NCBI GenBank assembly: GCA_000091205.1
Contig: AP006502.2
Reading direction: 5' to 3' (one strand)
Length of the DNA: 64,000 nt
Origin: Cyanidioschyzon merolae
Lineage: Eukaryota
The notes under the pieces were generated by a model. The model did not search any database and was not told the DNA's origin. It saw nothing but the letters and a program-made list of their open reading frames with translations. The position numbers and the translations under genes were made by a program. Shown here piece by piece: positions 4,932 through 64,000 of this stretch (the first letter of the stretch is position 1; each line of letters opens with the position of its first letter).

Positions 4932-5769
4932 GAATTCTTCTTACTGTAGGGCTAGCGCTAGTAGGCGCTGTACGCTGTCGGAGGTCATTTGTTCGACGTC
5001 TCAGACAGGCGAACGACGGCGCGTAGCTCCAGGCGTTGCCCCGGGAACCTTTACGGACGAGGTCGTTTACGAGGCTCAGCGTCCGAAGACCATAAAACGA
5101 AAGTATCATCGGAACTTGGCTCGAAAGGAATCTGGGCAGAGTGCTGACGCTGTATACGATTTTTGAATGACGACAACAACAGCGACAACCGGCCTCATGG
5201 CATGGTCAGAAATCGGGACTGTCGAGCAGTGGGGCGCACGAAAACCGCACAATTCAAACCAGTTTCTCATTCCAGCGTCTGTGCAGAATGGACTGCAAGA
5301 AACGGGAATAAACGTGTATCCGTAGTCGGGAAGACTGCGGCGCATAGTTTGTTTATGATCAATAAAACGAACGAAATTCCTGTTGAGTAGGGTGATGCAT
5401 ACCTCGCCCGCACAAGCGTAAGATACTACAATGGCTACGCTTTTGATAGAGGCGTCGAGGGGTATCGTGCCAGGCCCCTGCATCCCCTTGTCTGTCGGGG
5501 CGGTACTGCGATGGGCAGTAGCGTCGGCACCAGCGACAGAACCTATAGCAAGAGTTCATTCTACGTGAGTTTCCGATGTACAATACGTTGTTTTGGCTGC
5601 AGTGCACCGGTGAGAGCACGCATGTGCCAATGCGGGGTGTCGGACACGTGTCCTTCATCGATCGGTGCAGCGTCTCGCGCGGTGCACGCATCGCGCTCAG
5701 TGCGCGCACCTAGGAGATCAGGCAGGCGTGAGACACGACGCGCATGCCGCCGTTGAAGGGAAACGTAAT

Positions 5770-8260
5770 CGTGATCAGCAGCGTCTAGCTCTCGTGTTAA
5801 AGTTGTATTTTCGTTGACTTTATGGGCAAGTATAGTTTTCAGTTCAATTGTGTTTGAAAACTCAAACAAGTGTATTCTAGTGTTTTGTCGCAGTATATAA
5901 GAGGAGCGTTCAAAGAGGGTTCTTTTTCAAAAAAAAAAACTAAACAAGGAAAGTTATGAAAAAGCAAGTCGACGATCCTGGAGGCCCAGTGTCGCCGGCT
6001 GCCAGAAAGAAAACAAAACACAGTGCCGAGTCCAGAAGAAGAGGAGAAGAAAAAGAAGCAAAAGGAGGAGGCTCTACGTCGAGGGATGCAAGAAAGACGA
6101 CTGTACGACGAGAAGGTGGTGAAAGCTGGTCTTCTTGGACATATCAAGGATCCCTACAGGGAAAATTTGCGAGACGCTATCAGAAACCGTGTCGACTCGT
6201 ACTCCAAGAGTATTGTCAAAGCGTCGTCAGGACTGATGCACTCGGCGAGGGAGATGTATCGCGACGTGACGCACATGCAAACAGTCGAGGTCCCAGACGA
6301 GTTGTTCGATACGACCTCTATTCGATACTTGATGCTCGGTACAGGGGAAACGCGGACGGAAAATGAGCGAGTGCATGCCCTCCACGAAAAACATCCCTTC
6401 TACAGCTTCGAGGGTACTCGATACAGGGTTGACTCGTGTATTTACGAATACGGAGCGATAAAGTACCCCACGAGCCTGAATAAACATTTGACCGTGAACC
6501 TCGAACGTTTCATGATACGCGCCGTGTTTGCACTCTACCCGGGCATCTCTCGCAAAGCGATATGGATCATCATCGATAGCATCAAAAACGATAGTAAGAA
6601 TGAACAGGAGATCGAACTTGTTCACGAGAAGACATCATGCAGGAAAACGAATGAAGCTTCTGTAATCCGTGCGGCTATACAAGAGCACCGTGCAGCACTG
6701 GGGCTGGCGAGTCCAGCAGAAAAGATATCAGAGTTGAAAAAAGATAAGAAAAGATACGATCGCCCTGTCCTGCGCTATTCCATATTCCTGAACGGAGAAC
6801 TGGCACGCAGGGCCGATATGGAGCAGGGTGTGGAAGCAAATGCAGTGCCGGAGAAACGGGAAGCTGCGCTTCTGGCGAGGCATTTCAACGTCGTTCGGTT
6901 ACGCGAGATCAAGTCCCATTTGTGACGATCGACTCCACAGTCTTTCAGGACATCATGAAGGAGATCTGTCCGGATTTCGATGTCAGCAGGGAGGTGTTCT
7001 CCGGCGAAAACCGGGAGACGTTTGAAATCGAAGATATTCTGCTTCGATTTCAAACGCCTCAAAGTGAGCAAGCAAAAGCTATCCGCGGGGATGATCGAAA
7101 CCGATGGCGTAGCCATGTGAGTTGACTATCGGCGGTTGAAAAGCGATCGTCCTGGCCCGTGTTCGATATTGCCCGTGACGAAGCATGAAGATGAGAAGGA
7201 GGCGGGTCCTGCGACGCAGGAGGTGGAGGATAACGGCTTTATCGTTGGCGCGGTGAAGCATGATGAAAACAAGAAGGCGGATCTTGCCACACAGAAAGTG
7301 CAGGATAACGACTTTGTCGTTGGCGCGGACCCTGGGAACACGAATATCATAGCCATCGCAGTACCGAAACGTGCGGAATATGGTCACGACGGTAACTTGC
7401 GCCAGAAGGACATGGGTCTGTCGAGATTCTCGACAGCGAGATACTATCGAGAATCCGGTATAATGAATGCGAGGAAGAAAATCGAGACATGGAATGCAGG
7501 AATGAAGGAGCACCTGGAAGCCTTGAGCGAGTTGACTAGCCGAGGAGCGGACTTTGAAGCTTTTCGGAATTTCATGGAAGTTCGTGTTGCGCATTGGGAT
7601 GCACTGTGGGAGGAGTATACAAAGCCCTGGTGGGATCGTCTACGTATTAATCTATACTGTCGGAAGCAAGCTGCATTCAAGAAAATTTTCGATGAGTTCA
7701 GCGCCTTGGAGGAGGATGAAAGTCAGAGGCTCGCATTAGCGAACGGAGCAGGGCGCTGGGCTCCGAAAAAAGGGTGTACACCAGCTCCAACTACACGAAC
7801 ATACAAGGAGTGCGCAAGGCGTTTCGCTACGATACCTGCAGATGAGTTCCGAACATCGTATACATACCATGGACTCGGGTGCACATTTCAAAAGGTCGAG
7901 ATGGGAAAGTGTTAACGGAGCCCTGAAGATATAAAAAAGTACGGACCGCTGACAGAAGAGCAACTGGAAAGAAAAGCGAAGGCTTGAGGGCTACTCGCAT
8001 TAGTAAGTACAACCAATGGCAAGAAACTTATGGGATTCCTGTATCGCGACTTTGAGGCCGCTATCAATATAAGGGCATGTGCGGTGCTGGAGCATAGACC
8101 TCCAGAGTTGACACGAGAGAATTTTATGGGGCAACCTGTCAAAGTGGGACTATATGAGAAAACTATGAAACCAGTAGCAGGTGGCCGGTCGAGAGAAACT
8201 GGGAGGCGTCTGCAGCTCAGCTGGCGACTTCGTGTCTAGGGCGCGGGTCACGCGCCACTA
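5770..8260 (+). mobile_element. AT-rich island carrying a disrupted TnpB/Fanzor-like (IS605 OrfB-family RuvC nuclease) gene, copy A
   Basis: Composition drops sharply relative to the flanks (A-runs, 'tataagag', a(10) near 5930-5945). It contains a roughly 2.2-kb reading frame broken by stops and frameshifts (see the pseudogene entry). The island ends just 5' of the ABC transporter ORF. Confidence 0.45.
6023..8239 (+). pseudogene. TnpB/Fanzor-like RuvC nuclease, frame-disrupted (ORF pieces 6023-6925, 6922-7125, 7136-7915, 8030-8239)
   Basis: Pieces 6023-6925, 7136-7915 and 8030-8239 share one frame (position mod 3 = 2). In-frame stops were read at 6923, 6956, 7118, 7913 and 7985, and piece 6922-7125 bridges the first gap in a +1 frame. 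Motifs: RuvC-I-like 'DFVVGADPGNTNIIAIAV', 'EFRTSYTYHGLGC' (the TSxxC position of TnpB), and after the stops 'FLYRDFEAAINIRA', which is the RDxNAAxNI RuvC-III signature of TnpB/Fanzor/Cas12. The ORF 7136 'start' is TTG, so the track uses non-ATG starts. Confidence 0.5.
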
Positions 8261-8385
8261 CTATACTTCCGACCGCAGCAACGTTTGGTGGGTGAAGGCA
8301 GCACGCCTCATTTCGAGTGCTGTGCTCGAGTTTATACCCCAGCTGCGGGAACTTTTGCGGATAGCCATTTCTCGCCAAGTGTCTC

Positions 8386-10536
8386 GTGTGTTCGCAGGTA
8401 CCTATGGCTCGTCGATGGAAACTAAAGCTTCCAGAGTTGCGTTTCCTCAACTGGCGGCGCTGGGAAGCCTACACGGACAGTTGGGAGACGTCCTCTTCCA
8501 CGGACGTGGAAAAGCTCGTCGAACCAGCACACCGTGAAACGCTGTCGCTTCCAGACACCAGCGAGGTGCGTCGTCTACTTGCGAGTCTTGCACCGTTCGA
8601 ACTAGAGCGTCTGCAGTCAGTTCAAGCTGTATTCTGGCTGCTGAAGCCGTTCCTGTGGCCGCGGGAGTGGCGCATCCGGTTCTACGTGGCGCTCACCTTC
8701 GTGCTCACTGTTGCGGGCAAGGTGCTGACGGTGCTCGCACCGGTAGCGCTGAAACGCGTCATTGACGCGCTCGCGTCAGCACCCGTTGGCTCGTCCACCG
8801 CTGCTGTTCGCAAGGCAGTCACCTACACCGTACTATATGCAGCGTCACGCTTTGGTATGCAGCTGCTGAACGACGGCCAACGCTATGCATGGCTAACTGT
8901 CTCGCAGACGGCAACTCGTGCCATAGCCTTGACGACTTTTGCGCATCTGCACTCGCTCTCCATCGATTTTCACTGGCAGAGACGCACTGGAGAAGTCATT
9001 CGCGTTATGGACCGGGGCGTCGCATCCCTCGGTGAAGTACTCTCGGTTTTCGTATTCACCGTATTCCCAACCGCGATTGAGCTCTTGCTAGTGCTCTGGG
9101 TTTTTTTCGCCATGGGAAGCTTCTGGATTGCCATCACGGTACTCGTGTCGGTCCTGGTATACGGTGTGTACAGCAAGCAGCTTACCGAATGGCGAACGTC
9201 GTACCGCAAACTGTACAATGAGCGCGATAACGCCGCGGAGGCGCGTATGGTTGATAGCCTCCTCAACTCGGAAACGGTGAAATTGTTTACAGCAGAGGCG
9301 CGAGAAGTCAACCGCTACACGGAAGCCTATGTAGCGCTGCAGGAGAGCGAACGCACCCTGATAGCTACGCTGGGGCTGTTAAACTCTGGACAGTCGGTGA
9401 TCATTAGTTTGGGTGTTGGTATCTCGATGGTTATGGCAACGAGGCGCGTGGCACGCGGCGAAGCGAGCGCCGGCGACCTCGTCATGGTGAACGCCTACAT
9501 CCTGCAGCTGTATCAGCCGTTGCGGTGGCTCGGTTCTGCATACCGGCAGATTATGAGGGCACTTACCGATCTGGACAAGCTCTCAAGACTTCTTGCCCTG
9601 GAACCAACCGTCCGAGACTTGCCTGGTGCGCCAGCGCTGCGCCGTCGACACGGACAAGTGGAGTTCCACCAGGTGACCTTTCACTACGATGTCCTGTGGA
9701 GCGGCACGGAACCGGGTGCAGCGACGCGGGCCCAGATGCCCAGTACCGCCACTGACACTGCCACTGCTACTAGTAGTAGTAGTGGTGGTGGTGGTGGTGC
9801 TGGTGGTGCTGGTGGTGTTCACAACCTGAGTTTTACCATTCCGCCCCAACGGGTCGTTGCGGTTGTCGGTCCGTCTGGAGCCGGAAAGAGCACCATCGTG
9901 CGTCTGCTGCTTCGTCTGATTGACCCGCAACAAGGTGCCGTCTACATCGACGGTCAGAATATTGCACATGTATCCCAGCAGAGTGTTCGGCATGCGATTG
10001 GCGTCGTCGCTCAGGATCCTGTCCTCTTCAATGAGACCATTGCATACAACATTGCATATGGTGTCGATGCCGCTGCCACACCGGCTTGTATAGAGGCAGC
10101 GGCACGAGCCGCCCATATCCATGACTTTATCACCAAGCTCCCTGACGGTTATCAGACGGTCGTTGGCGAACGCGGCGTGCGACTTAGCGGCGGCGAGAAA
10201 CAACGCGTCGCCATCGCTCGAGCGATTCTGAAGAATCCCTCCATTCTGGTGCTGGATGAGGCCACCTCGGCGCTCGATACCGCAACGGAACGGGCGATTC
10301 AAGCCAACCTAATGGAGATGCGGACGGGACGCACGACACTCGTGGTGGCACATCGCCTCTCCACTGTCATCGACGCAGATGAAATCCTCGTTCTGAACGG
10401 GAACGGTGAGATTGTCGAGCGTGGTGCGCACGCCGAACTGGTGTCGCGACCTCAGGGCGCTTACCGCGCCATGTGGGAAGCCCAGGCACGCGCCCAAGTC
10501 ACCACATCGGATAGCGTGCCAAGTACGACGGCATGA
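8386..10536 (+). CDS. ABC transporter, B-family half-transporter (TMD+NBD), ATM1/HMT1-like
   Basis: 716-aa ORF with a six-helix transmembrane domain followed by an NBD. Motifs: Walker A 'VGPSGAGKST', ABC signature 'LSGGEKQRVAIARA', Walker B 'ILVLDEATSALD', H-loop 'VVAHRLST'. A low-complexity insert 'TATDTATATSSSSGGGGGAGGAGG' is encoded by triplet repeats near 9745-9830. Confidence 0.85.
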   Translation: MCSQVPMARRWKLKLPELRFLNWRRWEAYTDSWETSSSTDVEKLVEPAHRETLSLPDTSEVRRLLASLAPFELERLQSVQAVFWLLKPFLWPREWRIRFYVALTFVLTVAGKVLTVLAPVALKRVIDALASAPVGSSTAAVRKAVTYTVLYAASRFGMQLLNDGQRYAWLTVSQTATRAIALTTFAHLHSLSIDFHWQRRTGEVIRVMDRGVASLGEVLSVFVFTVFPTAIELLLVLWVFFAMGSFWIAITVLVSVLVYGVYSKQLTEWRTSYRKLYNERDNAAEARMVDSLLNSETVKLFTAEAREVNRYTEAYVALQESERTLIATLGLLNSGQSVIISLGVGISMVMATRRVARGEASAGDLVMVNAYILQLYQPLRWLGSAYRQIMRALTDLDKLSRLLALEPTVRDLPGAPALRRRHGQVEFHQVTFHYDVLWSGTEPGAATRAQMPSTATDTATATSSSSGGGGGAGGAGGVHNLSFTIPPQRVVAVVGPSGAGKSTIVRLLLRLIDPQQGAVYIDGQNIAHVSQQSVRHAIGVVAQDPVLFNETIAYNIAYGVDAAATPACIEAAARAAHIHDFITKLPDGYQTVVGERGVRLSGGEKQRVAIARAILKNPSILVLDEATSALDTATERAIQANLMEMRTGRTTLVVAHRLSTVIDADEILVLNGNGEIVERGAHAELVSRPQGAYRAMWEAQARAQVTTSDSVPSTTA

Positions 10537-15972: not shown

Positions 15973-17427
15973 TATGAGAGCATAAACTCGAGATCAGGTG
16001 CCCAATCACATCTAGTCTCTTTAGAGCTGACCCAGTATACTCGTTGAGTGCAGCACGTGCAAGAATTGAAACCTGGTGGCGGGAAAAATGTCGAGTTGGC
16101 GAGTGGCGCCGAGTGCGGCGTACCACGTGCTGCCGGTCGAAGCGATGGCATCTTGAGTTGTCCTTTAGGTTCACGTTTGAGCAAAAACTACTCGATGCCA
16201 TCCGCAGGCCCTTCGCCAGCTGCAGCTCAGCGTTGGCATCCTGCGTTTCATACGAGCAGTAGGATCCTGCTATGGCTGGGGCTCAGCGTCGGGGAATTAG
16301 CGGATGTTTTGTCGAGCAAGGCTCTCTGGTACGTAGCAGCGACCTGTAAGCGGTGCTATGACGGGTTGCTCGTGCCAGGAGCGGCCGTGATCGGTTCGTA
16401 CTCCCGAAATAAAATGCCGTGTCAGATTACTACAGAATAGGAGCTTCTCGCAAAGTTCTTACCTTTCGATACTGCTTGAACATTTGTTGAGATTTAGTAC
16501 TTCGACAACCCAGGTATAGCTATAAGGGCTTATAGATTCGTGAGTCGTTTCGGGATTATCGGTTGGGGTGTCGGCGTGGCGCCTTTAGCGATTTGCAGCT
16601 GGAGTTCCTTAGGTTATTGGAAACAAGATGATTCGCGATGCCTGCGAACACGCGCACTTACAATAACCGATGTCATTGACCAGTGCACTCGTGCAAGTTT
16701 TCATGCTTTCCCTTTGGATACCGTGGAGCAGGCGCACATCACGCAATCCTCGGTTTTCCCGATCTTTGTTTCTTGAGGGAGCTCGTGCGCGCAGCAACTT
16801 GCACAGCTGGACTGGCGATGAACAATATTCGACGGTGTCATTTGTCGACTTGTTGACAAGTTCATGCCGAAACACCACTGAAATTTTCACGTCAAATAAT
16901 CCGTTTTGTTCAAAAGACGAGTCCTGCTCTCTTTCTAGCCATCGACGTAACCGCATTCGATACCACCAGCAGCAGCAGCAGCATGATACCTGTCAGGGGA
17001 TGTGCTCCCAGATGCGTCCATTTCATCTCTTTCCATGGAAAAGAATATTTGACTCGGCATTCTGTCATTGCGACGATGGCCTAGTTTCGACAGATTGTCA
17101 TCACTTTGCACGAGGTGAGCGTAGATGGATCGAAATTTTTCGACTTGTTCCCAAGCATAGATCATACTTCCCATGCTTGGCGCATGATGATAAACATCGC
17201 TTGCCACAAATCCTTTATCGAATCGTGCAGCGTGCGCCTCTACGTGTCGCAAGCAGCATATTCGCCACGGACGTTGCCCGGAAGAGGCCCGTAATTGTAG
17301 CGTATGGCACCGGGCGTAGAAACTGAGCAGGGCTTGCACGGGAGCCCTCAGAATCCGTCAAGGGCATGAACGGAACGTTAACGAAATTCTTTCCTCGCGA
17401 CAGGAGTCCTTCGAATGAGAGATTGTA

Positions 17428-17670
17428 GTGGATCCCTACGTAAACATGACCAGCGACAAGCGTCAACACTGCGACGGGCGCACCAGCGCTGTATTCAGAT
17501 GGGATGCACATCGTAAGCGACGTGTAGATCGCAACTATCGCCTGTGCATGAAATGCGTCGACCAGCGCCAGGATCAGCAAAATCGGGATTTGAACGCAAC
17601 CATCAACATCTTTCGACAACTAGCAACGAAGCTGTACGAGTACGAGAGACCGGCGCATTCAAAGCCATAG
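17428..17670 (+). pseudogene. TnpB/Fanzor-like C-terminal remnant (copy B) inside an AT-richer island (about 16400-18180)
   Basis: 80-aa ORF ending 'TSAVFRW...NYRLCMKCVDQRQDQQNRDLNATINIFRQLATKLYEYERPAH'. This is a CxxC zinc-finger remnant plus the RDxNAxINI RuvC-III motif, closely similar to copies C and D. No intact upstream RuvC-I/II region was identified. Confidence 0.4.
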
Positions 17671-18455
17671 ATAACAGAGTGGACTATGAAGCACTCGCCG
17701 AAGCAAGGCCCAAATCCTGGTTTTCATACCATGGCGATTTACCCAGACTATAGTATGTACGCCCGGGCTGGTTAAATGGACCGGTTCCTCTTTGCCCTAA
17801 AGTACGCAGAGAACACAGACACGCTGAGCGATTCTGAGCAGCACTGGAGTGACTTCTCGGAAAGTGGAACCGTCGTTGGATCCCCGAACTCCATGTCCAT
17901 ACGTTTCCCTTAGATTTCATATTTCTTCAGATGAACGCAATTCGTACATATCTGTTATAATCCGCGAGAAAGCATTTGATTACATGCATCTCGAACTGGA
18001 ACCCAATTCAGCCGAAAAACTGGAAATGGGCATACGAGATCGCCCGTGCGTCCGCAATCCTAACGACCGCATCGACGAAGGTGATCCAACAATGGACAAA
18101 AGATATCTTGCACATCGCCTCGCACACGTCGCATGCTAAATACTCAATCATAGTCATTTAGGCATATTTATATCCTAAAAGTACACAGTGTTTCCGATCG
18201 CCCCCAAGCTGATGCGCACTGCCCGCGTCCCCGCAGACACGCGAAAGAGCGCGCGCGCGCGCGGCTGAAGGCTCGCGATCTCCGCATACCCGCAGTAGCG
18301 CCCCATGGGCGGTGGCGGCAGCGCTCCTTGGCGCCAACGCTGATCCCGCGCATGCATGCGAGCGCACGCACTGTAGCGCGTCACGCTGTGACCTGTAGAC
18401 GCCATAGCATTTCGGGTCCTGAGGCAGTGGAGCAACACGCTCAACATCGACTGAA

Positions 18456-29089: not shown

Positions 29090-29975
29090 GGAGCTGCTTG
29101 TAGAGCGTACAGCCACTGCAGCAGCTGGTTGATCCGGAGAAAACAGTTTCCAGTTGCATTGCGGATTGCAGGGCGCTGCATCCATCGCAGGGAAGAGTGA
29201 AATGGGGTTCCCTCGGCTGACTCGGGGACACACGTATTCGTAAGGTTAGGGTCTTTTTCACTAGCCATTAGACTGAGCCTACACGCGCTTTTTCTTCAGT
29301 GACTGCTCCCTTTTCCTCTCTGTTTTGAATCAGGATTTACGCGTGCCGGTCTCCGATGTCCATCAAGGTCCGTTGTCAGCCGTAGAACGGTATTCACGGG
29401 AGTGTTCGGGTCCCGGTAGCGCCGCTTTCGGCTGTTGTCGACGCATTTCACTCACAGGAGGTAGTTGCCATCTAGGCTACGCTTGCCATGTTCACCTTTT
29501 TTATGGACAGCCTCGGGGCGCGCTTCGCACCCGTGACACTTGTGCATGCTCGGGTTGGCGCTTACGTTCATAAGACCCCTCGCTTCCAAGGGCCGTTCCG
29601 TGAAGTGCGAGCGCTTCCCTCGCCACGCTTTCATGGTCCTTGACGAGTGCAGAACATTCCGCTCCATACTCTGTATTGTTCCCGCGCCTGATGCCGTACC
29701 CTACCGTCACGGGCTTCTTCTTGGCGTTGTCGTCTGCATGGGGGCTCTCCGCTGGATTGCCCGCACACGCTGTACAGTTCGATAGAAGATCTGTTGAACG
29801 CGAGCGTGTTCATCATAGAACGAGTATCCCAAGGAACATCCAGACAGGAGCCCAAGTCGATAAATTCCAAATTGTCTACACTTCTTTCATGCAAAGCGAT
29901 GATGAACGCTCGACTCGAGGTTATCGCTGCGATGACTACATTCCGATTCAACGATCCCTTTCCATGCAGATACAA
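29090..29975 (-). pseudogene. Decayed TnpB/Fanzor-like remnant (copy R29), internally deleted
   Basis: Minus-strand ORF 29631-29975 translates to 'SLNRNVVIAAITSSRAFIIALHERSVDN...SSIELYSVCG'. This aligns with copy A's N-terminal region 'SLNKHLTVNLERFMIRAVFALYPGIS...EIELVHEKTSC'. At nucleotide level it is about 70 percent identical, in inverted orientation, to 49400-49580 (copy D). ORF 29008-29268 (minus) holds a possible degenerate 'IRNATGNCF' relic of the NATINIF motif. It lies in an AT-richer island between MCCA and AUH. Confidence 0.35.
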
Positions 29976-30485
29976 CAGAATAGACGAAAGCTTTAGCGAG
30001 CATGTCCCGTGCCGCGATCCACCATGTCGTCAAAGATCGTTTCTTCGATGACCATAAAGAGAAGAGTAAGAGTGTCCCACACGTAATATATTATTTGACG
30101 TGAAACGTTTCTTATGGTCTCTGCTTCAGCTTGTGAACGAGTCGACAACGGACCAGGTCGACTTACTTTTCCGATCCAAGCTCCGGGCGCGTAACGCTTC
30201 GCCCCGCGAGTCGCCTTGAAACAGAAAGACAAAAAACCTGACGCATGCGTGATATGGGTATGCTGTAGGCGAGTACGGAAGGCGGGAGCCTAGAGGCTCG
30301 AACGTTTGAATTTGAAAACGATGCTGGTTATTTCACCAGCCATTGGTCGAGGGCACCGCGACTCACGTTGATTCTGTTACTTGATGAATCCCAGCAGCAA
30401 AGAGTCTACGGAGCCAGCCCCGAAAACATGACCAAGTATCCTGAAATGACGTTTGAGTCCGTAATCTCCTGATGCTGCACTTGGA

Positions 30486-31529
30486 ATGTCGAGCTTGTCA
30501 TTCTGTAAACAAAAGTTTCGAAGAAAAATCTCAGGATTCGACCAAAACGCGTATCTCGTAATTCCGTGGCAATCTGCCACGTCAAGAAGGTGCCTCGTTT
30601 CACTGGACTCCGCAGGAAGCGGTTGCTTTCAACCGCGCCCTAGCAACGGGATGCGACCTCTCACTCGTTTGGCTCGGTTTTGGCACAGAGGCTTCTGCGA
30701 GAAACGAACCTCACTGGTGCTTTGGAATGAACCCATAGAGCGTACCGTTGTCTTGACCCTGAACCGGCCGGAACGAGCAAACGCGCTTAGCGCCGAACTT
30801 GTCGAAGAGCTCAGAACGCACCTGCACCGCGTGCTCGAGCTGGCCTCTGCTCGTCCGGTGCGGTGTGTGATGCTTATTCTGGCATCAGCGCATGAACGCA
30901 TATTCTCTGCTGGTGCGGACTTGAAGCAACGAGCAGCCCAGAGCCCTGACCAGCAGCGCGACTTTACGCGAAGACTGCGCGAAACGCTGCAAAGCCTCGC
31001 AAAGTTGCCGTGCTTCACTGCTGCAGCGCTCCGTGGTGGTGCCTACGGAGGTGGACTCGAACTTGCCCTCGCGTGCGACTTTCGAATCGTTCAGGAGGGC
31101 GCGATCCTGGCACTTCCAGAAACTGGACTAGGAATTTTACCGGGAGCGGGCGGCACCCAACGACTTCCGCGACTCATAGGCGTTTCTCGGGCGAAGGAAG
31201 TCATCCTTCTGGGCCGTCGACTTGACGCCCGACAGGCACACCACTACGGACTCGTTAATGTGGTCGTTCCAGATGCCGATGCGGGAACAGCGGCAACGGA
31301 CAACACCCTGGAGGAAGCGCTGCAACTGGCTGCTTCTCTGCGGGAGCGCAGTCCGATGGCGCTCCAGTTGGCGAAACGAGCGATCGATGAGGGTATAGAT
31401 GCGAGTTCACTCGCCCGCGGTCTAGCGATCGAGGACAGCTGTTATGCGGAGACGTTTGGAACCAAGGATCGAGCAGAGGGTCTGCAAGCGTTTGTTGAAA
31501 AACGATCTCCGCGGTTTACCGGTGAATAA
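30486..31529 (+). CDS. AUH: Methylglutaconyl-CoA hydratase (enoyl-CoA hydratase/crotonase family, AUH-like)
   Basis: 347-aa ORF. The crotonase fold is colinear with AUH: 'IFSAGADLKQRA', 'AAALRGGAYGGGLELALACDFRI', 'ETGLGILPGAGGTQRLPRLIG', and C-terminal 'KDRAEGLQAFVEKRSPRFTGE' (AUH ends ...[21 protein letters not shown]). An N-terminal extension of about 80 aa is present. Confidence 0.85.
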   Translation: MSSLSFCKQKFRRKISGFDQNAYLVIPWQSATSRRCLVSLDSAGSGCFQPRPSNGMRPLTRLARFWHRGFCEKRTSLVLWNEPIERTVVLTLNRPERANALSAELVEELRTHLHRVLELASARPVRCVMLILASAHERIFSAGADLKQRAAQSPDQQRDFTRRLRETLQSLAKLPCFTAAALRGGAYGGGLELALACDFRIVQEGAILALPETGLGILPGAGGTQRLPRLIGVSRAKEVILLGRRLDARQAHHYGLVNVVVPDADAGTAATDNTLEEALQLAASLRERSPMALQLAKRAIDEGIDASSLARGLAIEDSCYAETFGTKDRAEGLQAFVEKRSPRFTGE

Positions 31530-40989: not shown

Positions 40990-41220
40990 GAACCAAGCCT
41001 ACACCAGACCCAACGTCGTACTGCACTCTAGTGGACTGTACTGTATTACACTGTACTGGACTGCCTTTTTAGGCGCTGTTGCGCTCGCCGATCGTGCCGG
41101 AAGAGAAGCAAACGCGGCAAGGGGTGCGCGTACTCACCAGCAGCCTAGCAGCGGATCGAATCGGTGGCACTGCTGGTAGCCGGTATCGTCCTCGATGTCG
41201 CTGCTTGTTACTGGTGTTCA

Positions 41221-41435
41221 GAGACAGGGCGTTTATTCCGTTGTGTTTCATGGCGTCGAGTCTATGCGTCGAGCTAGAGATGCATTGAATACGGGACGGG
41301 TCCTGATGTTCATAAACAGAGCGTTTATTCCGTTGCGTTTCATGGCGTCGAGTCTATGCGTCGAGCTAGAGATGCATTGAATACGGGACGGGTCCTGATG
41401 TTCAGGGATATTGCATTTATTCCGTTCATCCGGTC
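41221..41435. repeat. Tandem repeat, about 92-bp unit x 2.2
   Basis: 'cgtttattccgttg[t/c]gtttcatggcgtcgagtctatgcgtcgagctagagatgcattgaatacgggacgggtcctgatgttca' occurs at 41230-41312 and 41322-41404, with a partial third unit 'catttattccgttcatccgg' at 41415-41434. It lies in the intergenic region upstream of the GCPII-like gene. Confidence 0.9.
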
Positions 41436-42316
41436 ATTCTAGGGGTATCTTGAATCAATTCTAGATCACGGCACCAGACAAGAGAGTCTCCAAGGTGAAA
41501 CTCTTGCGTGATCCCGGGCGTGTAGACGTGTCCGCGCAGCAGCTCCTTCTACAATACCGCATCGAAGGACCAACTCTTCTGTTCGGATTTGTGGTGGTAT
41601 GAGCACACGAGTCACAGCATAAAAGACCGCTTCCGCTGCATAAAAAGATGGGACAGTTATCGTAGAATAAGTCCCGACGCTAGATCTATGTAAAAGTAAA
41701 CCCTGAAAGAGCTTCCGATTTACGTACTGAACTACCCACTTACGGGCTCTCCGACGAACGCACGCAACTTATTACCAACGGGTGCCTGGCCAGTGATTAT
41801 TCGGTCACGAGAGGACCTCTCTGGTGCTCATCTGGGCGTCATGCATATCCGTGAAGAACAGGTGCGTCAGGTTATCCGAGGCTACGAGATCAGTGCGCCT
41901 GAACAGGCGCCCTCGCGAAAACCGAGCGTGCTTATGGTAACACTGGAAGAGGCCAAGGCTCCTGCGCAAATGCTTCTAGGTTCCGAAAATGCAGCCCAAT
42001 CTTTGTCGTTCTAAGAGCGCTCGAGTGATGCAGGGCTCACGGGCACCGAACATGTCATGCGCGTTTGCGGCATATTGTACACCCAAGTCAGGAAAACATA
42101 GAAGAGCTCCACGCACTTACCGTGGACGTATGTATTGAGGTTTGGGCGGCTTAACACGCTTATCAACACCAACTGTTACAGGCTGGTTCTGTGACTGCTT
42201 CTTATTCTCTCTCTCTCTTGTATACAGCTTTGCATTTGCCAGTCTATCGTTTTCCATCAGCATCATTGCAACCAGTCGAGAGATGCTAATGGCAGCTATA
42301 AAGTCAAGATTGCACA

Positions 42317-42469
42317 AAATCTACCCAAGCACTGGACATGGCATGCTCGTAGGAAATACCCATACAGTATCCTTTAGTGCTAAATCTACCCAAGCACTGG
42401 ACAAGGCATGCTCCCTAGCAAAGACCCATACAGTAACCTTTAGTGCAAAATCTACCCAAGCGCAAATCC
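42317..42469. repeat. Tandem repeat, about 65-bp unit x 2.3
   Basis: 'aaatctacccaagcactggaca[t/a]ggcatgctc...cccatacagta[t/a]cctttagtgc' occurs at 42317-42381 and 42382-42447, with a partial third unit at 42448-42469. Confidence 0.9.
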
Positions 42470-47994: not shown

Positions 47995-49315
47995 GCTGCA
48001 GCGCATGGAATTCGTTCGGGTCCAGGATCGATGGCGCTGATCCAGGGCTTTTGAAGGCCCGCGTGCCGCTGGCAACCGTGTCGAACATAATACCAAGCTT
48101 TCACAAAGGTTTCGATACTCCACAAACTCCATGCAAGCATTCTCGAGCGGCGTGGAGGCTTGATCCAACGCGCCACGATGTGTCGATTCTACCGTGGACG
48201 CCTCTTGCAACACTGGATATGCGCCTGCACAGTTGCCGTGCGCGATGTCTGGGCCTCTTCGCCGTGCCGCTGGGTGTATCCGGTCAAGGCGGCGCTTGCA
48301 ACGAAGGTGTGCTAACCACAACCAGAGCTTTGTTACCAGAACACGGTAATCGTACAGACACTTTTCCAGCTGCCTTATTCCATCGTGATGCGCAGCTACC
48401 CAGAGTAGTGCGTGCCAGCGGCAAACAGAGGCCTTGGATAGGCGGCGCTGCATGCATGCATGCATGCCGCGGGACACGATTTGTGACAGCGAGCGTCACG
48501 TTTCTCTGTGGACGCTCTGCACCAGGCGACACATGCCTCTCGCTGACCTGGTCCGCATGCAAATTGATGCGCACTCGGTATAGCGGCATGCGGCCGGCGG
48601 AGATGATCTCGCCACCCTAGCGTATGAGCTTAGGGTGCCCTACGACACGGCTTCGTTCATGAGAAATACGTTGGGCAGTCACGAATGAACATGATACGTC
48701 GAACGCTAAGCATCGGTCGCAAGAGCTGACAAGCGAATGCTTCTGTGTTTGCCTAGACTCGTGTCCGATGAGCATGGAATACCGCATTGCTGGATCAGCT
48801 CCTGCCTTGCGTTTTTTGGAAGTTTTTTCTGATGTATAGCCTCGACGTTTGAAGTGTAGAAATCAGGGGTTGAAGGGTTCATTCGCAGTTTTAGGATCCT
48901 CGGTTGGATGCTTTGCAGTGGATGCGTTCACGCGTTGCCGCTGGAACTCGTTGCATCATCGTGATGAAGGTGATGATTCTCGACGCCATCGAAGGGGAGT
49001 TCGTAAAATATTCGACATTCATACCCGATGCATATATACACGCCTCGACTTGTCTTCGTTCCATAGGTGTAACATGCTCAGATCACGCATGCTACAAGTT
49101 TTTGATTTTTCTGTTTTAATGCAACTCGAGGGTGCATAAATTTGCACCACTGGATTGACGACGAAAACGAAAATCGATGTCGTATCTTGACAGTTTGTGT
49201 ATAAGCTCATGCCAGAACTTCACTGAACCTGTCTCGGTAAACAGTCAATGCCGTTCGTCGTACGAATATTCCTCGCTTTGTCGTCATCGACGAAGCAGCA
49301 TTCGACGGCACCGCT

Positions 49316-49960
49316 ATGACAAGGCTCATGCGATGCGCTTCCAGATGCTCCTGTCTCTTCTGTTTACATACAAAAGGATCTTGGACAGGGACTAGAGTTC
49401 GTGCAGCGACCGCTTCCAGTGGGGCGTGCGTCATTGCTTTGTACGAAGGAAGCGTAGACAATTCGAAGTTGCTCGACTTGATCTCCAGCCTTGAATTACC
49501 TTTTGGTACCTGCTCCGTCATGGACAAGATCGCGTTCCACAAATCCTCCATCGAATGGAACAGCGTGCAGCGGGCAGCGTACTCGTCGAGGGCCTCGCCC
49601 TAGAAGAAGCTCGGCATCACAGAGAACAGTACCGGTCGTGGAAATGGAAGCGTACATCCAGGGGCGCTTTCTGCATCTGGTACGGGCATATACCGAGCAG
49701 TGAAACACGCCTTCATGCGCGGCAGGGTGGCACTCAGATCGGGAGGTATCGTAGACATGCTGGAATACCTGACCGCATCCAGTTGTCAGTAGTGCGAAGG
49801 ACGCGCCGAGGCTACATACAACGGAGATGACAATGGGAAGCGAAGCTTGGATTGCAACTTCCGCCTGTGCATCGAATGCTTAGAAACAAAGCCGGAAGGT
49901 GCAAAGTCAGGACCTCTACGCCGCCATCAACATCTGTCAACTGTATCCAATGGAGCTTGA
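49316..49960 (+). pseudogene. Decayed, internally deleted TnpB/Fanzor-like remnant (copy D)
   Basis: ORF 49316-49603 has 'GACVIALYEGSVDNSKLLDLISSL...SSIEWNSV', homologous to copy A's N-terminal region and to R29. In one frame at about 49847-49875, 'NFRLCIECLETKPEGAK' (CxxC) appears. After a frameshift, 'QDLYAAINICQLYPMELEGKERRAH' (RDxNAAINI-type) appears at about 49905. Compare B 'YRLCMKCV...NRDLNATINIF' and C 'FRVCMKP...KELHAAINIF'. It lies in an AT-richer, gene-less stretch (about 48.6-50.5 kb). Confidence 0.4.
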
Positions 49961-51665
49961 GGGAAAGGAGAGACGGGCGCATATCAATCCGGAGATAGGA
50001 GAGAAGCACAGGAATCAGTTGCAGAGAAATCGCGCAGTGGCTACTGTTGGCGACAATAAGAAGGCTACCCAACTTTCATGTATACGCCCGAGTCAAGGTA
50101 CCCGTTCCATTTTATTCCGTCTTGGATGTCTCGCAATGTCGAAATGTTTGCGCAGGGCATCGTCCGAATCGCGGTACTTTTGAAACCTTTATCTCATTAG
50201 AGCGCGCTGCTTGATTAAGATAAAACCTAGTCGACGTATCTTCCTATCGCATCTGACGAATTGCTGTATTGTTGCAGCCTCTCGCCCATAACAGCGCGAT
50301 TCTCGAGCGAAATAGACCGAGAACGCGCCGCCAGGAGAGCTGCGCTTTTTGCCCTGCGTACCAGAAACCGACTTTTCTTTCTACATTCTCCGACGATTCG
50401 CTGGATGGATCTGCCACCCATCGCATAGGCATGGATGGCGCTGCGAAGTATGGAATATAGAAGCATGTCCAAAAAAACTGCGGTTGCTTTCCTTCTGATC
50501 CTCGGAAGCGTTCACGCTCCCGTACAGTTCAAACGGCACATTTCAATCGCGTTGCGCTGAGCAGCGCGAGTCTGACACAGCGGCAGGCGCCGGTTTGCTC
50601 ACGAGTTTGTACAGAGCACGACGAAGAGCACGCTAGTGCAACTTTAACAGTCGCGAGGCAAAAACCGGGGTATGCGTATGCGCTGAAAAACACGGCTGGA
50701 GAAGTGTGAGCTGAACGGCCAAACAGCACGGCGAACAGGCCGCAGGGCTCGCTGGAGCCCCTGAACTACGCTACGCACTGGGGTCTCTTCCGTGCTCGCT
50801 GGCTACTTGGAGCGTACTTCCGATCGCTTTCAAGTCGTCGTTCAACCATCACTTACGCCCTACACGCTTAACTGGTGGTGCAGGCACCGGCGCGGCGCGT
50901 ACTGACCTCCGCAACGCGTACTGACCTCCGCAACGCGTGCGCTTATCGGCCTCGCCTCTGACGTGCGCTGCGTTCGGAGACATCGGAAAAAGCTTATCAC
51001 ACGCCGAGCTGATGCAGAGCTCCAACGAACCCGACGGCGCTGCGCTTCGAGCTCCGCGACCGCACTTTACGGCTCAGATTCTGTACAGTGTCCGACTGAC
51101 TACAGCAGGTCATGACGACGACGACGACGACGTCCCGACGCCACCAAAAAGTGACCAGATACGCGAAGCGCTTTCCCGAGTCGATGCCTTGCTGTCGCAG
51201 AAACCAACAACAAACGATACTGCACGGACTCGGTCAACGGAAACGTTTTCAACGCAACTGAACCAGGACAGGGTGACCCCCGAATACCTTGCTCAGCAAC
51301 GTAGGCGTCCTGCACAAGCATATGAGGAGGGTGCACCATGTCAGCGTGCTGAAAGCGTTGCTAGAGCGACACTCGCATCACCGTCGCCAAGCGCGACGGA
51401 TGCAGAAGGGCGGCGCGTCACGGCAGACCATGCGATGCTTTCGGCGTATGCGGCGTGGCGTGCACGAGAGCTTGCCCGCAAAGCTCGCGACGAGGCAGAG
51501 AGAGCCCATTTCCGACGACAACCGTAGCGCGTTTCCTCGTTTGCGTTGTTGCTGGTGGAGCGTCTCGCATGCTACAATGAAGGCATGTGCGGAGCGGTAC
51601 ACATGTTGGATCGCATGCAACGGCACTGGATGGTATGCTCGAACGCGGCGCACGCCCGGTGCCTC

Positions 51666-53101: not shown

Positions 53102-53270
53102 AGCTATATCCCGTTTTGTACTGTATCGCATTCGCGCATCCCCGCATGCGCAGCGTGCATCCCCGGCATGTTGAGTTGATTCCTGAGATAGCTATATCCC
53201 GTTTTGTACTGTATCGCATTCGCGCATCCCTGCATGCGCAGCGTGCATCCCCGGCATGTTGAGTTGATTC
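53102..53270. repeat. Tandem repeat, about 88-bp period x 2
   Basis: 'agctatatcccgttttgtactgtatcgcattcgcgcatccc[c/t]gcatgcgcagcgtgcatccccggcatgttgagttgattc' occurs at 53102-53182 and 53190-53270. It lies in the divergent intergenic region between the NDK-AK gene and the LysM gene. Confidence 0.9.
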
Positions 53271-57344: not shown

Positions 57345-57415
57345 ACGACGGACACGCATGCAGACACGCATACATGCAGACACGCATGCATGCAGACACG
57401 CATACACGCATACAT
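57345..57415. repeat. Imperfect (ACGCATRCAG)n microsatellite
   Basis: 'gacacgcatgcagacacgcatacatgcagacacgcatgcatgcagacacgcatacacgcatacatg' in the convergent intergenic region at 57.0-57.6 kb. Confidence 0.8.
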
Positions 57416-63370: not shown

Positions 63371-63571
63371 GCATGGTTCGTGAGCGACTTGTTGCTATCA
63401 CACATGCTGCGGATCGTCGGGTTATACCCGTGTCAGAATAAAGTGGAAAGGGTCCATTTCGCTGATACAGGCGCAAACGCTCAGGTTGGGGTCTGTTCCC
63501 GTTGCCGTCAATAACGGCCTTTGCTGGCTTTTTCTGTGCATGTTTTCTTTTCCTCTGTCTGAACGCAAGCT

Positions 63572-63859
63572 TTACATGGACCGGTGTCTCGCTTCTCCCT
63601 GTAGGTCCGTTGTCAGCGGGTAAAAGATATTGATGGCAGCATGAAGTTCCTTATCGACGTGCTGCTGGCTGTTGTGGATGGGTTTCATGCACACGCGGAA
63701 GTTGTCATCTAAGCGTCGTAGGCCGTTTTCACCCTCTTTGGACACAGCGCCCAATAGCCCGTTGCAGGTTGACGCTTCACTGCGATTGGATGCTCGCATA
63801 TATCCGCTAGAGCTCCTACTCCGAAAGCTGTCCTGGAGCGTGCAAAACGATTGCTTCAT
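63572..63859 (-). pseudogene. TnpB/Fanzor-like C-terminal remnant (copy C), catalytic Asp lost
   Basis: 95-aa ORF ending 'DDNFRVCMKPIHNSQQHVDKELHAAINIFYPLTTDLQGEARHR'. This aligns with copy B 'YRLCMKCVDQRQDQQNRDLNATINIF' but has KELH in place of RDLN. Any upstream part would run off the window end. Confidence 0.4.
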
Positions 63860-64000
63860 CGCCGTCGAGAGGTGCCGTCGAAGAGTGCAACAAAAGCTCC
63901 AGTCGATGCCGTCCTCGATTTCCGTACCTGGTGTCGTACTCTATGATTCCAGGCTTGTTCTGGGAGATTTTCTAAGCGAGTGCTCTGTTTGGTGCACACG

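Follow-up and report, generated by a model that had tools for sequence, protein, structure and literature searches.

Dead copies of a 1.4-kb mariner-type element joining a truncated transposase to the tail of a Fanzor (TnpB-like) gene

Introduction

Mariner/Tc1 elements may carry a Fanzor1 gene, as was described for PGv-1, PUl-1, PUl-2 and PUl-4, all with TA target-site duplications (TSDs) (Bao & Jurka 2013, PMC3627910), and an association of 'Fanzor1c' with Mariner/Tc1 was also reported (Jiang et al. 2023, PMC10530073). The short repeat family described here resembles the PGv-1/PUl elements in its terminal inverted repeats (TIRs, 24-33 bp in those elements), in its TA target duplication and in the order of a mariner-like transposase followed by Fanzor1, and elements in which one gene was lost and the ends were kept are known there too (PUl-4). 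It differs from them in holding only fragments of both genes within 1.38 kb (vs 3.4-3.8 kb), in being many-copy and fully decayed, and in its host, a cyanidialean red-alga-like genome. For that host a single Fanzor1 family was listed (PMC3627910), namely CMe-1A, with ~80% DNA identity to its consensus, a length of about 3.17 kb and no TIRs (Bao & Jurka 2013, PMC3627910). No mariner family in Cyanidioschyzon was found described in our literature searches.

The window in this paper is the whole stretch of 64,000 nucleotides (64 kb) that was analysed. Positions 49316-49960 and several further segments in it had been predicted to be decayed copies of one Fanzor gene, together with a longer relic, copy A.

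Copies and extent of the repeat family

What is repeated in these segments is a defunct mariner-type element of 1.4 kb, whose remaining gene content is a shortened transposase and the last part of a Fanzor (TnpB-like) gene; positions 49316-49960 are the inner part of one such element of 1,373 bp (48756-50128, copy D). The window holds five copies of this ~1,381-bp family: three are complete, the window end truncates a fourth, and the fifth is a fragment. They were located by nhmmer with an element HMM built from 19 copies (HMM positions in brackets).

48756..50128, + strand: copy D, complete non-autonomous mariner-type element (positions 2-1381, E=0)
16414..17808, + strand: copy B, complete element of the short mariner-type family (positions 4-1374, E=0)
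29179..30585, - strand: copy R29, complete element of the short mariner-type family (positions 4-1381, E=0)
63425..64000, - strand: copy C, 3' 570 bp of the element, interrupted by the window end (positions 813-1380, E=4.5e-97)
42080..42315, - strand: fragment F42, last 233 bp, RuvC-III motif through 3' TIR, flanked by TA (positions 1149-1381, E=1.3e-34)

The 19 copies comprised three from the window and 16 from related metagenome contigs; these contigs (812 kb) gave 45-46 more family matches, 22 of them near full length and with identical limits. Copy D was 76.5% identical to the 19-copy consensus, and the window copies were collinear across about 1.38 kb.

In a self-BLASTN of the window, 49403-49576 matched 29930-29758 at 72.4% over 174 nt (E=1e-19), close to the figure of about 70% in inverted orientation that had been estimated for the 29.6-kb and 49.4-kb blocks; copy D matched copy B (E=3e-7 and 1e-6) and copy C matched R29 (E=1e-5). 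The query 49316-49960 found its true matches at E=1e-21, 4e-8, 1e-7 and 8e-4, while among six decoys of 64 kb, namely the window reversed and five locally shuffled versions, the best value was E=2.5, and the family HMM gave only E>=2.4 on them. The segments at 17.4-17.7, 29.6-30.0, 49.3-49.96 and 63.6-63.9 kb are thus mutually homologous, as the original prediction had stated. Fragment F42, the C-terminal relic of R29 (29454-29415) and the inverted repeats at the ends had been overlooked.

Copy R29 occupies most of the spacer between a carboxylase gene (end 28920) and a hydratase gene. The elements have a GC content of 0.45-0.52 vs 0.571 for the window, in line with the AT-richness noted before. 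The picture of one old, dispersed and decayed family in AT-richer intergenic islands holds for copies B, D, R29 and C, and fails for copy A, which belongs to CMe-1A (below). Scans of the window with Rfam and for tRNA genes gave no matches.

Termini and target site

The family has TIRs and a TA target-site duplication. The TIRs are 25 bp long, and 23 of the 25 positions are complementary between the two ends in the 19-copy consensus. In copy D they were mapped via the alignment.

48756..48780, + strand: 5' TIR of copy D, consensus CACCCGTGTCAGATTAAAATGGAAC
50104..50128, + strand: 3' TIR of copy D

The 5' flank of copy D ends in gccTA, directly followed by GACTCGTGTCCG, and its 3' end is CCGTCTTGGATG, followed by tc; the 3' end of F42 is CTGACTTGGGTG, followed by ta. 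Column identity rises from ~0.48 to ~0.70 exactly at CACCCGTGTCAG and falls again past CTGACATGGGTG. TA was present at 8 of 25 left flanks and 10 of 23 right flanks against a background of 3.0-3.4% (binomial P<=9e-6 and 2e-8, respectively), and many of the remaining flanks depart from TA by a single base. Copy C has a well-preserved 3' TIR and a TA flank, and a TIR probe allowing up to 3 mismatches matched the window only there (63431-63449), because the remaining ends in the window are too decayed. The search for termini, TSDs and a Tc1/mariner transposase that had been proposed along with the original prediction revealed the ends, a TA TSD and a transposase remnant, and was the decisive test. 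A SIDER-like retroposon or trypanosomatid origin was also considered, and was ruled out by the strand-alternating genes, the TIRs and the TA TSD.

Remnants of two genes

Both parts of the element could be assigned by homology to protein-coding genes, with the following predicted extents.

48832..49613, + strand: copy D, predicted transposase remnant (HTH and DDE_3 core), enclosing the block 49316-49603
49604..50078, + strand: copy D, predicted Fanzor1 C-terminal relic, with one in-frame stop and one frameshift
16492-17291, + strand: copy B, predicted transposase remnant (coordinates via alignment)
17282-17753, + strand: copy B, predicted Fanzor relic, RDLNATINI at 17584

For the 5' part, domain matches identify the remnant of a Tc1/mariner-IS630 DDE transposase. 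The 19-copy consensus matched Pfam DDE_3 (PF13358) at E=1.8e-10 and 41.3 bits (cutoff 28.6) over profile positions 3-113 of 146, together with HTH_Tnp_Tc3_2 (E=1.8e-4) and HTH_33 (E=2.4e-3) in the correct order. This identification depends on the 19-copy consensus: DDE_3 was not found by Pfam in single window ORFs (49316-49600, 29634-29975 and the copy B block), nor significantly in a consensus of the window copies alone. A search of 5.8 billion proteins revealed intact homologues (P0043, P0047 and P0048, E=3e-30 to 6e-17) of 306-317 aa and DD35E type, which cover 100% of the transposase consensus at 29-32% identity. The first two catalytic Asp are kept in the consensus (near 49289 and near 49523 in copy D), neither the third acidic residue nor the C-terminus is left, and the remnant of copy D is truncated at a YSPxxxP motif; in the three homologues the third catalytic residue is that of NPIE, which is missing from the short family. 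Against PDB sequences, profiles of the transposase part and of the Fanzor part gave nothing significant, the best being a chance match to ribosomal protein S18 (E=0.15).

The blocks at 49316-49603 and 29631-29975, formerly read as a Fanzor N-terminus, are therefore assigned to the IS630/Tc1/mariner DDE catalytic core, and no statistical support was found for their supposed match to SLNKHLTVNLERFMIRAVFALYPGIS of copy A. Reading by eye was misled because the relic is a chimera of transposase and nuclease. With a TnpB-like motif beside it, the repeated 'N-terminal' block mimics a deleted Fanzor gene, an annotation trap that is corrected here.

The 3' part is a genuine relic of a TnpB/Fanzor1 gene, covering its last ~157 aa. 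In copy D it starts at the strand just 5' of the VDE-type RuvC-II motif, with the zinc finger CxxC pairs at 49784 and 49868 and the RuvC-III motif RDxNAAxNI at 49908. The 19-copy consensus matched Cas12f1-like_TNB (PF07282) above the gathering score (E=3.2e-7, 30.9 bits, cutoff 26.3), and its Fanzor part aligned with aa 530-637 of an intact 657-aa Fanzor1 (locus L074, below) at 33% identity (BLASTP E=2e-10), in support of the TnpB/Fanzor identity first proposed. The consensus signature ..HLTTAKCHRC...CMKC..NRDLNAAINI matches the published Fanzor1 C-terminal pattern, [TS][TS]-x-x-C4 zinc finger-x(5,50)-RD (Bao & Jurka 2013, PMC3627910). Single window copies and the consensus of the window copies alone reached only E=0.006-0.036 against the TNB domain, including the 80-aa ORF 17428-17670 of copy B (PF07282, E=0.036), and a homologous-protein search with a four-copy consensus of the Fanzor part found none.

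The C-terminal motif (CxxC ... RDxNAAxNI) was read as previously reported in copy B (YRLCMKC..NRDLNATINI), copy D (FRLCIEC../QDLYAAINI, with a frameshift) and copy C (FRVCMKP..KELHAAINI). The loss of the catalytic Asp from copy C has no meaning, because all copies are neutrally decaying pseudogenes. Neither the RuvC-I Asp nor an N-terminal WED/REC-type region is present, the sequence upstream of the junction being transposase. The short copies are fragments of Fanzor genes rather than Fanzor genes.

The transposase remnant ends just before the third catalytic residue and joins the Fanzor1 tail out of frame. About 70 nt at the junction can be read in two ways and in different frames, as 'AYSPRGSP' (transposase) or as 'QRALA...KKPVIVGYG' (Fanzor-like spacing), so the junction could be placed within ~70 nt and a base-exact position is excluded. 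One junction is common to all family members, including 16 full-length copies in other contigs.

Decay of the copies

All copies are neutrally decayed pseudogenes. They were 69-77% identical to the consensus and 58-59% identical to one another, and differences from the consensus were spread evenly across codon positions (P=0.83 and 0.68). The longest sense-strand stretch free of stops in any copy had 219 codons (copy B) and was out of frame for the transposase. Since none of the ~50 family copies is open and even the consensus is cut short and shifts frame, the element is a non-autonomous derivative, and it encodes neither a functional transposase nor a functional nuclease. Classification as a MITE (<~800 bp, non-coding, with TIRs and TSD) was rejected for an element of 1,381 bp in which remnants of two genes are recognisable; internally deleted non-autonomous element is the better description.

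Origin of the short elements

Composite elements with both genes intact exist in relatives, where transposases homologous to the remnant stand directly upstream of Fanzor1 genes encoding 636-657 aa. At locus L074 (ENA ERZ19565769 scaffold_10152), 34-nt inverted repeats (59-92 and 3101-3134) enclose two genes on the same strand, the transposase P0047 (81-1001) and the 657-aa Fanzor1 (1033-3006), with TA flanking the left side only. In the P0048 contig, 92 bp separate the transposase from a downstream gene for a 636-aa protein that matches PF07282. These two are the closest intact relatives found, and they resemble the short family in a transposase 29-32% identical over its full length and in a Fanzor1 on the same strand, 31-92 bp downstream, with a C-terminus 33% identical. 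L074 differs in being intact, ~3.08 kb long, with another TIR sequence and of marine source, so it serves as a model of the parent and is not the parent. The nearest composites share just 29-33% protein identity with the family and come from unrelated marine metagenomes. A tblastn with both consensus proteins matched nothing beyond the short elements already located and gave no autonomous parent in the window or in the 812 kb of related contigs.

We consider it very probable (about 0.85) that 49316-49960 is the middle of a non-autonomous IS630/Tc1/mariner element whose founder arose by internal deletion of a mariner+Fanzor1 composite. The parent, presumably living in this lineage, would have had the order TIR, mariner-like transposase (~307 aa), Fanzor1 (~640 aa), TIR. 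A single internal deletion in the founder would have taken away the rest of the transposase, beginning just ahead of the third catalytic residue, along with the first ~515 residues of Fanzor1, and fused the remnants out of frame. The element still has an inverted repeat of 25 bp at each end, the transposase HTH with the first two catalytic Asp, and the last ~157 Fanzor1 codons with the RuvC-II region, the CxxC...CxxC zinc finger and RDxNAAxNI. One deletion in the founder is proposed because the junction is identical in every member, including the 16 copies elsewhere; copies D and R29, which had been thought to be individually deleted, would accordingly share an ancestral deletion.

The short element was probably mobilised in trans by a full-length relative recognising the same ends, and inserted at TA dinucleotides. 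It probably spread in one old burst and has since decayed neutrally. Insertions were seen between genes only, and those within genes were presumably selected against.

Internally deleted class II elements include Ds, derived from Ac, and deleted copies of P and mariner. The short family would resemble them in keeping both ends, in its internal deletion, in mobilisation in trans and in a derivative outnumbering its parent; it differs in that the deletion spans two genes and yields a chimera of transposase and RNA-guided nuclease. These are ordinary transposon fossils and reveal no new mechanism. They add a fossil mariner+Fanzor1 lineage to a genome for which the literature searched had one Fanzor1 family, CMe-1A, unclassified and TIR-less.

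Possible guide-RNA function of the 3' end

The guide RNAs of TnpB and Fanzor systems come from the 3'-terminal part of the gene and transposon. This placement, also documented in a published study (PMC10530073), raises the question of whether the Fanzor 3' segment was kept for a function. It is very unlikely in our judgement that this end is a putative guide-RNA scaffold and the elements are parasites served by a Fanzor1 protein, e.g. that of CMe-1A, of which some copies keep intact ORFs, and by a mariner transposase; that the segment near the right end stayed a functional fRNA scaffold, making the elements guide-bearing hitch-hikers with Fanzor1 acting in trans, is slightly less probable still.

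The 251 nt at the 3' end of the consensus reach -82 kcal/mol in folding vs -66.6 kcal/mol for shuffled sequences (z=-3.27; 1 of 200 shuffles as good), but this signal is largely a hairpin in which the TIR pairs with its own inverted copy in subterminal position. A second, independent deletion family in the related contigs, combining a nearly complete mariner transposase with ~85 C-terminal aa of a CMe-1-like Fanzor, likewise keeps the Fanzor 3' end; yet any deletion derivative able to transpose must retain both ends, and no extra function is needed. In addition, the level of conservation hardly varies along the element and has its minimum close to the 3' end (0.65), substitutions are neutral, and Rfam offers no match. 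If the guide-RNA reading were true, CMe-1A would descend from a mariner+Fanzor1 composite; the short family and its sibling deletion family give this origin of CMe-1A a testable form.

Copy A and the CMe-1A family

Founder deletion of a composite remains the preferred reading of the short copies, and copy A falls outside it.

5247..8286, + strand: copy A, decayed element assigned to the CMe-1A Fanzor1 family, reading frame broken by frameshifts (near 6920 and 7060) and in-frame stops (7913 and ~7990)

By its sequence matches copy A is a member of the published CMe-1A family of Cyanidioschyzon merolae, distinct from the short mariner-type family. Its stitched translation was 70% identical over 658 aa to the CMe-1 protein (PMC3627910, supplementary file 3), and about 70 related copies shared 78-80% DNA identity with it, with homology running from 5247 or ~5690 to 8262-8286. 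Pfam and NCBIfam searches with pieces of copy A and with the CMe-1-like protein P0001 returned nothing useful, the Pfam set searched being one without the precomputed DUF8286 (PF26935), and phmmer of the stitched translation against PDB did not find a Fanzor match.

All six relics, copy A included, had been read as one Fanzor/TnpB gene family, with Fanzor N-terminal blocks and independent deletions in D and R29. An RDxNAAxNI-type motif does occur in every relic, and the Fanzor parts of CMe-1A and the short family are remote protein relatives: hhalign aligns them collinearly (P=0.0012), BLASTP gives E=0.006, and both are of Fanzor1 type and connected via the L074 Fanzor1, which is homologous over its full length to P0001 (E=8e-42 and 2e-28). 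Membership of the same broad Fanzor1 group is where the likeness between copy A (about 3.0 kb) and the short elements stops. CMe-1A has no TIRs, recognised TSD or transposase, whereas the short family has 25-bp TIRs, a TA TSD and a transposase remnant; the two lack DNA similarity, and the short elements are older (73% vs about 80% identity to consensus).

The asserted similarity of the short copies to copy A could not be recovered. In a tblastx of 5700-8400 against the window no short copy came up at E<1. A profile HMM from 38 homologues of copy A, searched against the six-frame translation with filters off (--max), matched copy A alone and missed the 'N-terminal' blocks; and BLASTN, tblastx and HMM comparisons of copy A or its family with B, D, R29, C and F42 gave no match beyond a 9-residue motif, the only further HMM match being RDxNAAINI in the four-copy consensus (E=0.16). 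With the blocks lying in the DDE_3 core, and one junction in each full-length member leaving no place for independent deletions, the one-family reading is highly improbable.

Other alternatives

The element might also be, or have been, autonomous and encode a compact protein of about 420 aa that fuses HTH, DDE and TnpB parts, given that the remnants abut without spacer on the same strand and that 1.38 kb is a mariner-like size. We give this even less credence: in the 19-copy consensus no single reading frame runs through both parts, the transposase lacks its third catalytic residue, Fanzor lacks the whole RuvC-I part and the N-terminal ~515 residues, 0 of ~50 copies are open, and no such protein was present among 5.8 billion predicted proteins, judged on candidates with words in common with the consensus. 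That the similarity goes back to duplicated segments or to conserved regulatory DNA between genes, with no transposition involved, is suggested by copies that are intergenic and in one case nearly fill the spacer; we regard it as next to impossible, since homology ends sharply at the inverted repeats with flanks unrelated except for TA, copies lie in both orientations beside unrelated genes here and in other contigs, and divergence is star-like and neutral.

The lower GC of the decayed elements creates the 'AT-rich islands'. In this compact genome the AT-richer stretches between genes consist largely of transposon fossils; the short mariner-type family accounts for 7.8% of the window and CMe-1A for a further 4.8%.

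Repeat copies and element ends

The original prediction listed five places in the window as alike, which held for four of them in sensitive self-BLASTN, while copy A (5247-8286, + strand) did not match. The segment 49403-49576 was 72.4% identical to 29930-29758 over 174 nt (E=1e-19), and matches were also observed between 49785-50003 and 17462-17679, between 49067-49568 and 16723-17235, and between 63527-63744 and 29287-29509. The copies were collinear in all frames of tblastx, indicating homology at the DNA level. With 49316-49960 as query, the true matches were at E=1e-21, 4e-8, 1e-7 and 8e-4, versus no match under E=2.5 in six 64-kb decoys, in which the family HMM gave only E>=2.4. The C-terminal motifs were also found where they had been predicted.

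The alignment of the window copies was converted into a four-sequence profile, which revealed one more window fragment (42.1-42.3 kb) and, in a related contig, a full copy. The window members of this decayed mariner-type short-element family are as follows.

48756-50128, + strand, copy D
16414-17808, + strand, copy B
30585-29179, - strand, copy R29
64000-63425, - strand, copy C, cut by the window end
42315-42080, - strand, fragment F42

A sample of related contigs (71 loci, 812 kb), gathered by scanning metagenomes with a CMe-1-like query protein, contained 45-46 further members; 22 were nearly full length, and these all shared the same limits. No open copy was found in the window or among these related-contig members.

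The element consensus was built from 19 non-redundant copies, 3/19 from the window. Its column identity rose from ~0.48 to ~0.70 at CACCCGTGTCAGATTAAAATGGAAC and dropped after GTTCCATTTTATTCTGACATGGGTG. The termini and target site duplication, which the original prediction had proposed to look for, were both recovered: the consensus ends were complementary at 23/25 positions, and TA flanked 8/25 left ends and 10/23 right ends, against a background TA of 3.0-3.4% (P<=9e-6 and 2e-8).

Several further features were observed at the copy ends. In the 3' TIR, the outermost 12 nt recur as an inverted subterminal copy ~35 nt upstream (CGCCCGAGTTAG vs CTGACATGGGTG), and the two form a terminal hairpin (positions 1320-1381 of the consensus; in copy D, window 50070-50128), which may act as a second site for transposase binding or as an RNA element. 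At its truncated 5' end (42315), F42 adjoins a tandem repeat of 66 bp (42315-42461, with 2.2 copies at 90% identity), and a 92-bp tandem repeat (41211-41426) lies in the same AT-richer island. With its 5' end at 30585, R29 covers the initial 33 codons of the enoyl-CoA hydratase-like ORF 30486-31529; this ORF probably starts instead at the Met at 30651, in which case R29 fills ~1.4 kb of a 1.7-kb spacer.

Transposase and Fanzor remnants

An almost open consensus frame of ~260 codons, beginning MYSLDIRSAAIRAY, contained Pfam DDE_3 (E=1.8e-10, above gathering score, profile positions 3-113 of 146) with HTH_Tnp_Tc3_2 and HTH_33 upstream. A second frame, open for 157 codons (KKPVIVGYGTGRGN...VDIWEHLTTAKCHRC...FRLCMKC...NRDLNAAINIL), matched the Fanzor/TnpB C-terminal domain Cas12f1-like TNB (PF07282, E=3.2e-7, above gathering score). 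The junction of these two gene remnants is common to all copies. DDE_3 had no Pfam significance in single window copies or in a window-only consensus, and TNB reached only E=0.006-0.036 in these; the 19-copy consensus was needed for domain identification because the window copies are too decayed. The block 49316-49603, formerly taken as a Fanzor N-terminus, aligned position by position to the core of DDE_3 (copy D 'GSWTGTRVRAATASSGACVIALYEGSVDNSKLLDL...CSVMDKIAFHKSSIEW', consensus 'GSWTRT.VIAAIASNGECVTALHEGSVDGSKFLDL...CFIMDNIAFHKSSIEW') and is therefore transposase.

Decay and life history

Identity of the short-element members was 69-77% against the consensus and 58-59% between members; the divergence is star-like and the short elements are older than CMe-1A. 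In the transposase and Fanzor remnants alike, first, second and third codon positions differed from the consensus equally often (P=0.83 and 0.68), indicating neutral decay since insertion. It is very improbable that the retained 3' end is a functional guide RNA, since conservation is flat, substitutions are neutral and the Rfam scan of the window was empty, the one point in favour being how the final 251 consensus nucleotides fold (z=-3.27 vs shuffles).

By analogy with Tc1/mariner biology, the transposase of a full-length relative would have bound the 25-bp ends, and the short element would have been excised and then pasted into TA sites. Intragenic insertions were presumably removed by selection, so intergenic insertions alone are seen. 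The autonomous parent was absent from the window and the 812 kb of related contigs, and may be extinct.

Probable origin of the short elements

In a search of 5.8 billion proteins, the transposase consensus had intact DDE_3 relatives of 306-317 aa, with full coverage and 29-32% identity (E=3e-30 to 6e-17). The E of YSPxxNPIE lies 35 residues after the second Asp in these relatives; the short-element consensus transposase stops at 'AYSPRGSP'. The composite architecture exists in relatives. A 636-aa PF07282 protein is encoded 92 bp downstream of metagenome protein P0048 on the same strand, and on metagenome contig L074, P0047 (81-1001) is followed by a 657-aa protein (1033-3006), both enclosed by 34-nt inverted repeats (59-92 and 3101-3134). 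The 657-aa protein was homologous over its full length to the CMe-1-like protein P0001 (E=8e-42 and 2e-28) and is a Fanzor1; its residues 530-637 were 33% identical to the short-element 3' consensus (E=2e-10). A single internal deletion within an element of the form TIR-transposase-Fanzor1-TIR, with the shortened copy then amplified, explains this most simply. A transposase-Fanzor fusion protein encoded by the element would join the same two parts, but this fails because their reading frames differ in the consensus, each catalytic site is incomplete, and neither an open copy nor a similar protein was found.

The presence of Fanzor1 genes in Mariner/Tc1 elements that have TIRs of 24-33 bp and TA duplications was reported in 2013 (PMC3627910) and confirmed in 2023 (PMC10530073). 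The short elements differ from these in being doubly truncated and amplified, and no such mariner and Fanzor1 derivative from the cyanidialean lineage was found in the searchable literature.

A second ~1.4-kb family was observed in metagenome contigs outside the window (L013:8605-9519, L058:5948-4641, L010:7093-5960, L030:16435-15535, L046:12740-11948). Its mariner-like transposase is nearly complete (aa ~8-296, YSPWFNPIE included), and its 3' part encodes the C-terminal ~85 aa of a CMe-1-like Fanzor1, 44-51% identical to P0001. A CMe-1-type Fanzor was thus at one time in physical linkage with a mariner transposase, which hints that the unclassified, TIR-less CMe-1A family is of mariner origin.

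Copy A and the CMe-1A family

The original prediction placed copy A and the other relics in one Fanzor family. This fails: no BLASTN or tblastx match joined copy A to the other places, the N-terminal block is transposase, and a copy-A HMM (38 homologues, unfiltered) matched copy A alone in the six-frame window translation. Against the repeat consensus, its sole extra match was the 12-residue RDxNAAINI (E=0.16). The similarity between the Fanzor relic and CMe-1, the CMe-1A protein, was remote (hhalign P=0.0012; BLASTP E=0.006), thus the two families of the window are distinct lineages within Fanzor1-bearing elements.

The translation of copy A, stitched over two frameshifts and two in-frame stops, had homologues 52-74% identical in JGI metagenomes (E down to 1e-295). 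It was 70% identical to the published CMe-1 protein over 658 residues, and window 5247 (or ~5690) to 8262-8286 had 78-80% DNA identity to ~70 copies in related contigs; therefore copy A is a known element. CMe-1A of Cyanidioschyzon merolae is already published, with ~150 copies that each share ~80% identity with a consensus of 3,169 bp, TIRs absent and Fanzor1 ORFs intact in some copies (PMC3627910). The window would thus most likely derive from C. merolae or from a closely related cyanidialean alga.

Copies of CMe-1A started at 5247 or near 5690 (window coordinates), and these two 5' variants agree with the published description of the 5' 635 bp as a separate element, TE-N2_CMe (PMC3627910). 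A short palindrome, CGTTCGACTTTCGAACG, lies near the end of the family consensus. Within the ORF, a 75-bp tandem duplication (7180-7328) encodes the acidic unit '..KHE(D/E)(E/N)KK(E/A)(A/D)..ATQ(E/K)V(E/Q)DN(G/D)F(I/V)VG..', present ~4 times in P0001, more often in metagenome protein P0008 and once in the published consensus, therefore it is a linker of variable copy number just before RuvC-I.

Window setting

The window has a GC of 57% (0.571), and its long ORFs are tightly packed, alternate between strands and show no obvious introns; GC drops to ~50% in several stretches of 1-3 kb. The short-element copies total 4,987 bp (7.8% of the window) with GC of 0.45-0.52 vs 0.571 overall, and the 'AT-rich islands' are the transposon copies themselves. 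Segmental duplication fails to account for the repeats, as their ends are sharp and TIR-bounded and their flanks unrelated. Neither tRNA genes nor Rfam families (at gathering score) were found in scans of the 64-kb window, and three long host ORFs lacked an exact match in the protein-position index. Tandem repeats at 53102-53270 (88 bp x1.9, 98% identity), 50896-50938 (19 bp x2.3) and 57357-57414 (16 bp x3.6) appear unrelated to the transposon families.
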